A stretch of DNA of 64,000 bases from Eledone cirrhosa (taxonomy: Eukaryota): the NCBI GenBank assembly GCA_964016885.1, contig OZ024761.1, positions 10,850,001 through 10,914,000 of the forward strand, in the 5' to 3' direction. The position numbers and the translations under genes are program-made. The notes below the pieces were generated by a model. It was not told the origin of the DNA and ran no database searches. It saw only the letters and a program-made list of their open reading frames with translations. This document shows, piece by piece, positions 52,801 to 58,800 of the stretch. Within the stretch, counting starts at the first letter, position 1; the number at the start of each line of letters is the position of its first letter.

Positions 52801-55800
52801 TGTTTCATTCTTTCTCATGCTTACTGAGATATCACTAACGACTAACCTATGCTGTGGGGTACATTCTTCCCCAGGGTATGCCTTGGTATTTGACACCATC
52901 TGCCTGTCCCGCTGCCTAACTAGTAAGAAGTCAATCTGGCTTATGTGCTCGCCTGATTTGTAGGTTATTAGGTGGTTGATAGGCTTCTGGATGTTAGTGT
53001 TGCAAATGGTTAGTGCACTTGCATCACAAAATTCAAGAAGCCTCACTCCTTCATTTCTTGAGCCGTAACCGTGCCTTCCATGTACCCCAGTGTATCCATC
53101 CTGGAGCTGTCCAACATGTCCATTGAAGTCCCCTGCTAGCATAACGATGTCTATGTCCTCTGTCATTGCAGCTATTTGTAAAAGTTGCTCGTAAAAGCAG
53201 TCTTTCTCTTCTTTACCTAGGCCTGCTTGGGGAGCATAGGCAGAGATGATTGTCATCAGTAGTCTCTTGCCTACAATATATATGCAATCAAAACCAAGTA
53301 ACTTACTGCAGCTGTTGACAACAATGGGGCTGATGTGACAAGGAACTCTGAAAGAGAAACAACCAAAAGTTAATAATTAGTTAAGACTTCAATAATTAGT
53401 TTTGACATCAGTAATTAATGTTATTAGTGTAACGAATCAGCAAATTTGTTAGAATATTTGACACAATGATCTGTTGTGTTCATTCCAGATTTAACTTCTT
53501 TTCTGAGTTCAAATCCCACCATGGTTGACTTTGTCTTTCTACCTTTCAGACCTGATTAATAAGAAGAAAGAAAAAAAGCTGATTGTCAGATTGGACCAGG
53601 GAAACAATGTTTCCATTACTGATACTATCTATCTGTCACAACACCTGGCAGAAGAATGGAGCTGTTCATCAGATCAGAGATCAAGGAAGCAATGTTTCTA
53701 TTGGTCTTTCCATTGCTGACACTGCCTGCTAGTAATATATATATATATATATATATATATATATATATATATATATATATATATATATATATATGCTGTT
53801 TACTCGAGAGAAGACTACGTTGGTATGGTCACGTGATGCACATGAAAGACGACAGCTGTATAAAAAAAGTGCAGGGCGATAAAAATAGAGGGTAGCCTGA
53901 GAATAACAGGTGTACAGGTGAGAATAACATATATATACATACATATATATACATACATATATATATACACTCACCAATGATAGACTTGAGGTATGCAATA
54001 CGATATAGCAACTTCATTTCCTTGCGTCTGTCTTTACTGACCAAACGACTGAAACATTTCTCCCAGGCATTTAACTTGATTTGTTTAATTCCTCGGATTA
54101 ATTGTTTCACTTTCTTTACTCTCCTCTCACTGTGAATCTGAAATAGAGAGAGAGAGTGAGAGTGGTATATATATATATATATAGAGAGAGAGAGAGAGAG
54201 AGAGAGACATAGATAGAGAGAAAGAGAGAGAGAGATGAAAAGATAGAGGGAGGAGGGTATAGTAACACACACTGATGATAGAATTCAACAATATACACAC
54301 AGACACACACATACATACATACATACATACACACACAGACACACACATACATACATACATACATAAACACACACACAGATACACACACACATACGCACAG
54401 ACAGATACACAGAGAGACACACAGACATACACAACCACAGACACACACATACACACACACAGACATACACACACACACACACACACACACACAGACAGAC
54501 ACACACACACACACCACACATACATACATACACACGGACACACACACACACACACATACACACAGACAGATACACACACACACAGACATACACACACAGA
54601 CATACACACATAGACACACACACACACACACATACACACAGACAGACACACACACACACAGACAGACAGACATATGTCACCTACCATGATGCTACCTTGC
54701 AGTCTAAAGAGATGGCCTGCAGTAGCAATGTGCATGCCTGTGTGTACAGCGACAATGAAGAACCCCATAATTGCACTGGGGCCAAGTTTGAAGAAGACCA
54801 CAAGGAAACCAAGAATGACCTGGAAGTAAACAGAGGGCTAGAGGTTGGACCACGTCACAGTAATATCATATCTGGGGCCATGTAGAGGGCTAGAGGTTGG
54901 ACCACGTCACAGTAATATCATATCTGGGGCCATGTAGAGGGCTAGAGGTTGGACCATGTCACAGTAATATCATATCTGGGGCCATGTAGAGGGCTACAGG
55001 TTGGACCACGTCACAGTTATATCACATATAACTAGGACCATGTCACAATATCACATATAACTGAGGCCATGTCACAATATCACATATAACTGAGGCCATG
55101 TCACAATATCACATATAACTGAGGCCATGTCACAATATCACATATAACTAGGGCCATGTCACAGTAATATCACATATATCTGGGACCATGTCACAGTAAT
55201 ATCACATATAACTAGGACCATGTCACAGTAATATCACATATATCTGGGACCATGTCACAGTAATATCACATATATCTGGGACCATGTCACAGTAATATCA
55301 CATATATCTGGGACCATGTCACAGTAATATCACATATATCTGGGACCATGTCACAGTAATATCACATATATCTGGGACCATGTCACAGTAATATCACACA
55401 TATCTGGGACCATGTCACAGTAATATCACATATAACTAGGACCATGTCACAGTAATATCACATATATCTGGGACCATGTCACAGTAATATCACATATATC
55501 TGGGACCATGTCACAGTAATATCACATATATCTGGGACCATGTCACAGTAATATCACATATAACTAGGACCATGTCACAGTAATATCACATATATCTGGG
55601 ACCATGTCACAGCAATATCACATATAACTAGGACCATGTCACAATATCACATATAACTAGGACCATGTCACAGTATCACATATAACTAGGGCCATGTAGA
55701 ATTTATAGGGCTCTGTTGAATCTCATCATCATCATACAGAATATACAAGGTTCTTTTAAGGGACACTGGTATATATTACTACCATGGAGAGGTGTTGTAT

Positions 55801-58800
55801 ATAGTAACTTACCTATACAGGTGTTGTATATAATGACTTACCTGTACAGGTATACAGTGACTTACCTCCACAGGTATACAGTGACTTACCTGTACAGGTA
55901 TACAGTGACTTACCTGCACAGGTATACAGTGACTTACCTGTACAGGTATACAGTGACTTACCTGTACAGGTATTGTATATGACTTACCTGTACAGGTATA
56001 TAGTGACTTACCTTTACAGGTATACAGTGACTTACCTGTACAGGTATTGTATATGACTTACCTGTACAGGTATATAGTGACTTACCTTTACAGGTGTTGT
56101 AAATAGTGACTTACCTGGAGAGGTACTGCCCAGAAATAATGCAAGAAACTGTAGATGATCATAAGGTTGTTACATTCTAATGTCACATGATTCATAATCT
56201 CTGTTTCTGTAACTCTTCCGTGTGATAATGCCTGAGTTGACAGCTGTTGTACCTTACTATATATCATTACCTGTGGATAGAATAACAGGTGTACAGGTGA
56301 GAATAACAGGTGTACAGGTGAGAATAACAGGTGTACAGGTGAGAATAACAGGTGTACAGGTGAGAATAACAGATGTACAGGTGAGAATAACAGATGTACA
56401 GGTGAGAATAACAGGTGTACAGGTGAGAATAACAGATGTACAGGTGAGAATAACAGGTGTACAGGTGAGAATAACAGATGTACAGGTGAGAATAACAGGT
56501 GTACAGGTGAGAATAACAGGTGTACAGGTGATAATAACAGATGTACAGGTGAGAATAACAGGTGTACAGGTGAGAATAACAGGTGTACAGGTGAGAATAA
56601 TAGGTGTACAGGTGAGAATAACAGATGTACAGGTGAGAATAACAGGTGTACAGGTGAGAATAACAGATGTACAGGTGAGAATAACAGGTGTACAGGTGAG
56701 AATAACAGGTGTACAGGTGAGAATAACAGATGTACAGGTGAGAATAACAGGTGTACAGGTGAGAATAACAGGTGTACAGGTGAGAATAACAGGTGTACAG
56801 GTGAGAATAACAGGTGTACAGGTGAGAATAACAGGTGTACAGGTGAGAATAACAGATGTACAGGTGAGAATAACAGGTGTACAGGTGAGAATAACAGGTG
56901 TACAGGTGAGAATAACAGATGTACAGGTGAGAATAACAAGGCTACAGATGAGAATAACAGGTGTACAGGTGAGAACAAATGTTGTTGGTCAATAGATAGA
57001 CAGGTAGGTAGATAGGTAGGGATGTAGGTAGGTAGGTAGGTAGGTAGGTAGGTAGGTATGTAGACAGGTAGGTAGGTAGGTAGGTAGGTATGTAGACAGA
57101 TAGGTAGGTAGGTAGGTGGGTAGGGGGTAGGTAGGTAGGTAGGTAGGTAGGTAGGTAGGTAGGTAGGTAGGTTGGTAGGTAGGTAGGTAAGTAGGTAGGT
57201 AGGTAGGTAGACAGGTAGGTAGACAGGTAGGTAGGTAGGGGGGTAGGTAGGTAGGTAGGTAGGTAGGTAGGTAGGTAGGTAGGTAGGTAGGTAGGTAGGT
57301 AGACAGGTAGGTAGACAGGTAGGGGGTAGGTAGGTAGGTAGATAGGTAGGTAGGGGGGTAGGTAGGTATGGGGGGTAGGTAGGTAGGGGGTAGGTAGGTA
57401 GTTAGGGGGGTAAACAGGTAGGTAGGTAGGTAGGTAAGTTTGGGGGTAGGTAGGTAAGTTTGGGGGGTAGGTAGGTAGGTAGGGAGGTAGGGGGCAGACG
57501 GGTAGGTAGGGGGAGGTGTGGGGTAGGTAGGGGGTAGACAGGTGGGGGGGGGGGGGTAAATAGGTAGGTAGGTAGGTAGGTAGGTAGGTAGATAGGTAGG
57601 TAGGTAGGTAGGTAGATAGGTAGATAGGTAGGTAGGTAGGTAGGTAGGTAGGGAAGTGGAGAGGTAGGTAGGTAATAATTGAAATGAGACTTACCTGTAT
57701 GGCAGCTTTCATCCTCATACCCTCCCGGATGAGTATAAAGAAGTGGTACTCCATTAGAGAGTACTGGAGTAACATGAGAAGGAAGACCAGAGTGATGAGG
57801 ATGTAACCATTGGAGAAGAACTCTGACACAGACACATTGAGATTGTCCTGGAATAGAGAGAGAGAGATGGTGGTGGTGGTGTGGTGGTGGTACTGTGGTG
57901 GTGGTGGTGGTGGTGTTGGTGGTGGTGGTACGGTGGTAGTGGTGGTGGTGGTACTGTGGTGGTAGTGGTAGTGGTGGTGGTGGTACTGTGGTGGTGGTGG
58001 TAGTGGTGGTGGTGGTACTGTGGTGGTGGTGGTAGTGGTGGTGGTGGTACTGTGGTGGTAGTGGTAGTGGTGGTGGTGGTACTGTGGTGGTGGTGGTAGT
58101 GGTGGTGGTGGTAGTGGTGGTGGTGGTACTGTGGTGGTAGTGGTAGTGGTGGTGGTGGTACTGTGGTGGTACTGTGGTGGTGGTGGTAGTGGTGGTGGTG
58201 GTAGTGGTATGGTGGTGGTGGTGGTGGTGGTGGTGATGATGGTAATGTGGCGGTGGTGGTGGTGGTACTGTGGTGGTGGTGGTGGTGGTGGTGGTGGTGG
58301 TGGTGGTGGTGGTGTTGGTGGCGGTGTTGGTACTGTGGTGGTGGTGGTGGTGGTGGTGGTACTGTGGTGGTGGTGGTGGGTGTTGTTGTTGTTGGTGGTG
58401 GTGGTGGTGGTGGTACTGTGGCGGTGGTGGTGGGTGTTGGTGGTGGTGGTGGTGGCGGTGTTGGTACTGTGGTGGTGGTGGTGGTGTTGGTACTGTGGTG
58501 TTGGTTGTGGTGGTGGTGGTGGTAGTGGTGGAGGTGCTGGTGGTGGTGGTGGTAGTGGTGGTACTGTGGTGGTGGTAGTGGTGGTGTTGGTGGTGGTAGT
58601 GGTGGTGATGCGTACATCCATACCTTTTTATCATGGAGTGGCAAGAGAGCCGCTGTCACGGTGCTCCTAATAGCAGCAGCAGCGGTGGCGGTGGTGGTGG
58701 TGGTGGTGGTGCCGTTGTAGATGGCGTAACCAGCTCCCATCTCGTTGTCAAGGGAACGTCGAGTGACGGACGAGGGATGATGTGACGATGTCCCGTTGAC

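Follow-up and report, generated by a model that had tools for sequence, protein, structure and literature searches.

The 64,000-nucleotide (nt) window analysed here (contig OZ024761.1 of the Eledone cirrhosa assembly GCA_964016885.1; all positions below are those of the window) carries on its minus strand what is, judged by the similarity of its coding sequence, part of an octopod ABCC9-like gene, that is, a gene of the sulfonylurea-receptor (SUR) type. The gene model comprises 25 exons giving 1159 codons, stop-free when spliced, and the spliced frame is 86% identical to Octopus sinensis isoforms over about 1160 amino acids. Our subject is one exon of this gene and the two minisatellites between which it lies. 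The exon (56115–56270, minus strand) is 156 nt long, begins and ends in phase 0 and encodes 52 amino acids that are 96% identical to the O. sinensis ABCC9-like protein and 94% identical to that of Argonauta; among solved structures (PDB) its best relatives are SUR1, where it aligns to residues 394–444 of SUR1/ABCC8, and SUR2. On the topology of SUR proteins, we take these conserved residues to form part of the first core membrane domain. The preceding exon (153 nt) lies at 57695–57847 and the next (135 nt) at 54685–54819, both on the minus strand. The authentic acceptor AG occupies 56271–56272 (minus), and the authentic 5′ splice site, CAG|GTAAGT at 56109–56117 (minus), is the first of 13 donors. 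Read across the junction, the acceptor is AG|GTAATG (56265–56272, minus), in itself a weak donor-like junction; it recurs in the aligned contig of a second organism (organism B) and is implied by the conserved Q|V boundary of the homologues.

Downstream of the exon is a minisatellite of 24-, 26- and 29-nt units (55783–56114, minus) holding 12 further copies of AG|GTAAGT, here called decoys. Their GT dinucleotides stand at 56085, 56061, 56035, 56011, 55987, 55961, 55937, 55913, 55889, 55865, 55841 and 55812 (minus); eight decoys have the full consensus CAG|GTAAGT and six are in frame with the exon. A TAA in the reading frame (56088–56090, minus), the ninth codon past the exon end, precedes every one of the 12. 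Aligned, the 13 copies of the junction (the true donor and the decoys) share ACCT-T--AG|GTAAGT; the first unit spans the exon/intron boundary, and the donor is repeated within the intron as pseudo-sites. On this alignment the array consists of the exon/intron junction copied in tandem. Seven decoys sit inside a 14-nt palindrome, TACCTGTACAGGTA, which the true donor lacks. The exon-end core CCTCTCCA is kept at both ends of the array, in the true donor and in the last partial copy; the 29-nt outer units have the core CCTGTA and the 24- and 26-nt inner units mostly CCTGTACAG. Because the exon-end core persists at the ends and is replaced inside, a 29-nt duplication of the junction would have come first and the palindromic core later. 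A single template switch was rejected as the origin of the palindrome: neither an arm copy nor a loop inversion of the exon-end core yields the observed core.

The second minisatellite, 33 units of 21 nt (56279–56978, minus), ends 8 nt before the acceptor. It amounts to 33.2 copies with 95% matches, includes 31 copies of CTCACCTGTACA and has a single internal AG, at 56943, leaving an AG-free zone of 669 nt. Near-absence of AG is what AG exclusion before an acceptor demands of an array in this position; AG-free units are found in seven of the 27 complex arrays of the window. Part of the last unit is CTCAC (56297–56301, minus), a putative branch point with its A at −28 and the only yUnAy motif 15–45 nt before the acceptor. 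The distance is inside the 18–44 nt range given for branch points in PMC6988378, and the motif fits the yUnAy described there, not the stricter CTRAY. Since CTRAY is lacking and some yUnAy occurs in the same range at 17 of the gene's 25 acceptors, we call the branch point putative only. The upstream array likely amplifies the intron's own branch-point/pyrimidine segment. Organism B bears on this: in a DNA-like contig with 17 differences from the locus over 170 letters, a 17-mer found where the same intron ends agrees with the first upstream unit at 16 of 17 positions and with most units at 15; the A of its yUnAy stands at −24. The upstream unit looks like an intron end minus its final G. In the 30 of this contig's 143 loose letters that were covered, one such 17-mer is seen.

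The upstream unit recurs as an exact 32-nt copy, in the same orientation, in another intron 2.3 kb away (53898–53929, minus). Taken with one more letter (53897–53929), this stray copy ends in AG 78 nt after the donor at 53975 and mimics an acceptor with its yUnAy. Metagenome contigs contained no exact match to the upstream unit. An antisense gene using the upstream units as donors (CAG|GTGAG on the plus strand) was rejected, as the GT is missing in organism B and nothing else supports it.

Use of the first donor was observed in a spliced contig. This 151-nt contig (set X3, depth 2.1) is identical to the exon at 74 of 74 letters, and its loose end agrees with the next exon at all 30 letters shown, joining the first donor to 54819. 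Going by this contig, the most upstream donor is likely the one mainly used. Among runs listed as RNA none contained the stretch 55780–56290, a result that says nothing about expression. Four contig sets were aligned to the 281 nt from 56030 to 56310, a stretch that includes three of the 12 decoys, about two of the 33 upstream units and no neighbouring exon, so that skipping could not show. Two of the sets, X1 and X2, drawn from one sample, contain 78 nt of donor-unit sequence (depth 32 and 48) in a layout unlike that of the window; its source may be an allele, a later part of the array or other loci, and as it leaves the exon uncovered it is no evidence on the exon. No difference of the kind that A-to-I editing would leave was seen over the 74 exon letters of the X3 contig, a comparison of exon sequence with unmatched DNA. 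Among proteins, the full 52 residues are kept in all 26 homologues that reach the preceding exon. These come from 35 homologous proteins (15 identified by pattern and 11 by reading the segment, with nine fragments set aside), from two clusters with 15 of 21 members listed in each; the clusters were found using the exon itself, which biases the count.

The original prediction described the locus as an exon bracketed by a decoy-donor array and a complementary "anti-donor" array. Its description of the parts was accurate: the exon with its 12 AG|GTAAGT units, the palindrome around many decoys and missing from the true donor, about 33 almost AG-free units upstream, and a stop that any decoy use would include are all present as described. 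The complementarity at 11 of 12 positions holds for seven of the 12 decoys; four others match the upstream 12-mer at 10 positions and one at nine, as does the true donor. The "anti-donor" unit reads better as an amplified branch-point/pyrimidine segment. With the 27 complex arrays of the window compared pairwise for reverse-complement match between units, this pair ranks first of 351, with three pairs one match behind; its best-matching unit pairs number 31 × 7.

How such a match might arise is suggested by the motifs themselves. A branch-point-like CTCAC with CTG after it comes close to the reverse complement of a donor, and this is why the true donor already matches at nine positions. With two changes in the decoy core the match goes from 9/12 to 11/12, and the palindrome arises in the same step. 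In direct orientation, this derived core also equals the upstream unit, at nine of 10 positions in nine of the 12 decoys compared with seven of 10 at the true donor; because of this match and the stray exact 32-nt copy, local DNA copying would be a sufficient source of the decoy core. The complementarity between the arrays is likely a by-product of the branch-point-like motif plus the shared CCTGTACA core, which was probably spread by local DNA copying; alternatively, selection on RNA may be the source of the match. Nor is bracketing by arrays unusual here: tandem repeats make up 46.6% of the window, and two of the 25 exons are flanked on either side by a complex array, where array coverage leads one to expect 0.9. 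An apparent crowding of arrays at exon edges (p 0.005 and 0.0007 under a random-point null) was discarded, as that null ignores that exons cut arrays off; under a coverage null 4.7 are expected and five and six of 25 found.

When the whole region is folded, the donor array pairs with itself. Ensembles contain 115–135 pairs within the downstream side versus 0–13 across the exon, and in six folding settings the probability of pairing with the upstream array is 0.00 for all 13 donor sites. Blocking the self pairing of the donor array costs 32.7 kcal/mol at 37 °C and 38.8 kcal/mol at 20 °C (the forced cross-fold was computed with 20 of the 33 upstream units); helices across the exon reach at most 9 bp, as against 14 bp in the self fold, and the periods of 21 and 24 nt fall out of register. 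The fold of the donor array (−129.9 kcal/mol) is equalled by none of 100 shuffles and has the lowest energy per base of the 27 complex arrays. Dinucleotide shuffling loses the repeat structure, and we rely instead on units in which the donor was fixed and the spacer shuffled: two of 400 mask the donor as strongly and four of 400 fold as strongly. Opening the U1-binding stretch is predicted to cost 4.5 kcal/mol at the true donor and 10.1–13.7 kcal/mol at the eight perfect decoys; restoring the exon-end core in silico lowers the decoy costs to 4.7–7.8. The decoys are predicted to be masked locally, decoy against decoy, in hairpins of their own making. Masking of the decoys, which the original prediction assigned to the upstream array, is probable, but a part of that array in it is not supported. 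The feature was picked after the fact, and palindromic units may just be easier to form or to expand; whether the hairpin contributes to silencing or is a mutational by-product seems to us about evenly balanced. Rfam returned four matches, all to microRNA hairpin models far below their cut-offs, which we take for chance hits on the hairpin.

Minisatellites of this kind are known from human genes. Intron 7 of F7 has a 37-bp variable number tandem repeat (VNTR) whose first unit lies across the exon/intron boundary; the repeat carries further copies of the donor as pseudo-sites, and splicing takes the most upstream of the sites (Borensztajn et al. 2006, PMC1557585). The octopod array resembles it in the position of its first unit, in the reiterated donor and, in the one contig, in use of the first donor. 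The F7 sites, however, are weak (consensus value 74) with no masking structure predicted, whereas eight of the 12 octopod decoys are perfect and strong self-folding is predicted; further differences are the exon-side core turned palindromic, the single stop ahead of all decoys and the second array across the exon. In F7 minigenes, perfect-consensus pseudo-sites took 70–90% of splicing from the weak first site (PMC1557585), a diversion from a weak site where the octopod first site is perfect. The same source names CBS intron 13, IFI6 (6-16) intron 2, lamin B2 and PDGF as having donor-reiterating minisatellites of 10–25 units, like the octopod array with its 12 decoys; splicing in CBS and 6-16 also uses two pseudo-sites. 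In intron 18 of human ABCA7 the unit of a 25-bp VNTR includes a donor, and use of the second unit leads to a premature stop (De Roeck et al. 2018, PMC5954066). Here the likeness extends to an ABC transporter gene, a donor-bearing unit of similar size and a stop if a decoy is used. For ABCA7 length polymorphism and splicing effects have been measured, whereas the octopod array is known from its sequence and predicted folds; the palindromic core and the second array are octopod features of which the ABCA7 passages drawn on make no mention. A literature search, mostly without subscription journals, found no octopus or cephalopod case and no palindromic or hairpin-masked donor repeat; we make no claim of absence for either.

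Taken together, these observations make it probable that the exon is constitutive, that its own splice signals have been amplified into two tolerated minisatellites, and that splicing stays on the first donor. DNA slippage would have amplified the junction downstream and the branch-point segment upstream. The palindromic core would let decoys pair with decoys, raising the predicted opening cost of the eight perfect ones to 10–14 kcal/mol compared with 4.5 at the true donor. The first donor would win by position, as in F7, with masking aiding this first-site preference; the aid is invoked because perfect pseudo-sites competed in the F7 minigenes. Pairing across the exon would play no role. Any leakage, for which the poorly masked first decoy (+29 nt) is the likeliest site, would produce a premature stop and degradation of the transcript, the latter assumed from the rule of nonsense-mediated decay.

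Other repeats in the same gene support this reading. A second donor-derived array (42310–42801, minus; 22 units of 21 nt) was copied from the junction of the exon at 42886–42802; most of its units have lost GTAAG, and one CAG|GTGAG is left at 42584. It shares a 1.3-kb intron with an AG-poor array (41538–42226, minus) that has one AG in 689 nt and 28 yUnAy motifs and ends just before the acceptor at 41522, so that this intron is almost all repeat, with arrays abutting both splice sites. At 7528–7768 (minus) an 85-nt unit across the acceptor at 7556 has given two upstream copies of the exon start, in both of which CG replaces the acceptor AG.

Several points weigh against the reading of tolerated arrays. 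It explains the top rank of the complementarity only after the fact, and where self pairing is forbidden 171–176 cross pairs do form. Four of the 12 decoys, all imperfect and including the first, are poorly masked, with opening costs of 4.9–9.2 kcal/mol; five of the gene's 25 true donors cost 8.3–10.5 to open, which makes masking a weak predictor, and ensemble folds show the decoys at least as open as the true donor. Given the diversion of 70–90% in F7, being first in line may not be enough. Transcripts are represented by a single contig at depth 2.1 from a run of unrecorded type, and rare forms are lost in contigs. Finally, the 17-mer of organism B also matches an unrelated acceptor of the gene (52087–52103) at 15 of 17 positions, and its likeness to the upstream unit is therefore in part that of generic intron-end sequence.

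The most serious of the other explanations is a length-dependent leak as at ABCA7, in which decoys are used at times (with a stop, and decay) or a neighbouring exon is disturbed, and allele length tunes the amount of SUR-like protein without any pairing across the exon. The first decoy, predicted to be about as open as the true donor (4.9 versus 4.5 kcal/mol), would permit this, and the 78-nt donor-unit piece at depth 32–48 has a layout compatible with another allele or more loci; the ABCA7 repeat itself causes one unit to be retained and the next exon to be skipped, the skipping depending on repeat length (PMC5954066). Yet the one spliced contig has no decoy junction and the exon is present in 26 of 26 homologues, both observations being insensitive to minor forms, and we consider such a leak unlikely. 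That the decoys serve as recursive-splicing points, or ratchet points, as the original prediction also suggested, is scarcely credible. Every decoy is AG|GT, as this would require, but in all 12 the pyrimidine fraction before the AG is 0.53–0.59 with a longest run of three, whereas it exceeds 0.59 at 23 of 25 true acceptors; without a pyrimidine tract such use is improbable. Moreover, recursive splice sites lie in long introns: here the whole intron measures 1.3 kb, and the spacing of 24–29 nt is too short for an intron.

Pairing of the arrays across the exon, so that decoys are masked, the exon is looped out or circularised, or an editing substrate is formed, was the core of the original prediction, and the folding analysis supports neither the pairing nor the looping out. 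In its favour are the 11/12 complementarity with its rank of first among 351, the 31 × 7 best-matching unit pairs, the 171–176 pairs formed once self pairing is blocked, and the in-frame exon. Skipping would nevertheless delete 52 conserved residues, presumably of the first core membrane domain; the true donor is itself already complementary at nine of 12 positions; and the zero probability of pairing at 13 of 13 donor sites, the penalty of 33–39 kcal/mol and the short, out-of-register helices all speak against it. Elements that circularise exons likewise place complementary sequence on both sides, 30–40 nt being the short end of their length, and linear splicing is favoured where the pairing is confined to one intron (PMC7521338). 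The octopod flanks are reverse-complementary, as in those elements, but the longest duplex is 9 bp in place of an extended 30–40 nt, and unlike them the cross pairing is predicted to lose to pairing inside the downstream intron. We regard this explanation as very unlikely. Much the same low standing falls to a self-silencing array, in which perfect donors beside an essential exon are made safe by the palindromic core while the upstream array offers an alternative cross-exon fold; should A-to-I editing or allele length weaken the hairpin, that fold would prevail and switch the exon to skipping or circularisation.

Further features of the gene lie away from the exon. Two similar micro-exon candidates with AG/GT borders, encoding RRSSLPER (35878–35903, minus) and RRSSLAER (33455–33475, minus), are possibly duplicated or mutually exclusive; the second is in the gene model. 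At 28350–28376 (minus), some 40 nt past the donor of the exon at 28497–28413, the intron repeats about 25 nt of that exon's interior almost exactly. Introns contain local inverted duplications at 42806–43160, 44913–45200 and 50440–50990 against neighbouring stretches; inverted pairs such as 45150–45215 with 44910–44985 and 43115–43300 with 42995–43120 may form long intronic hairpins. Intronic fragments at 52400–53290 and 8150–8800 resemble, by eye, coding sequence of LINE/RTE retroelements.

In kind the locus is ordinary, donor-reiterating minisatellites being already known from human genes. In this repeat-saturated cephalopod gene, both splice signals of one exon appear to have seeded minisatellites, and the gene has three further cases of the kind. 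With 13 near-identical, mostly perfect donors in a row, the exon would provide a natural test of how the spliceosome chooses among them. Because perfect pseudo-sites compete with a weak first site in F7, and eight perfect decoys here are predicted to be masked by hairpins, a single minigene could separate "first come" from "structure" as the basis of that choice.

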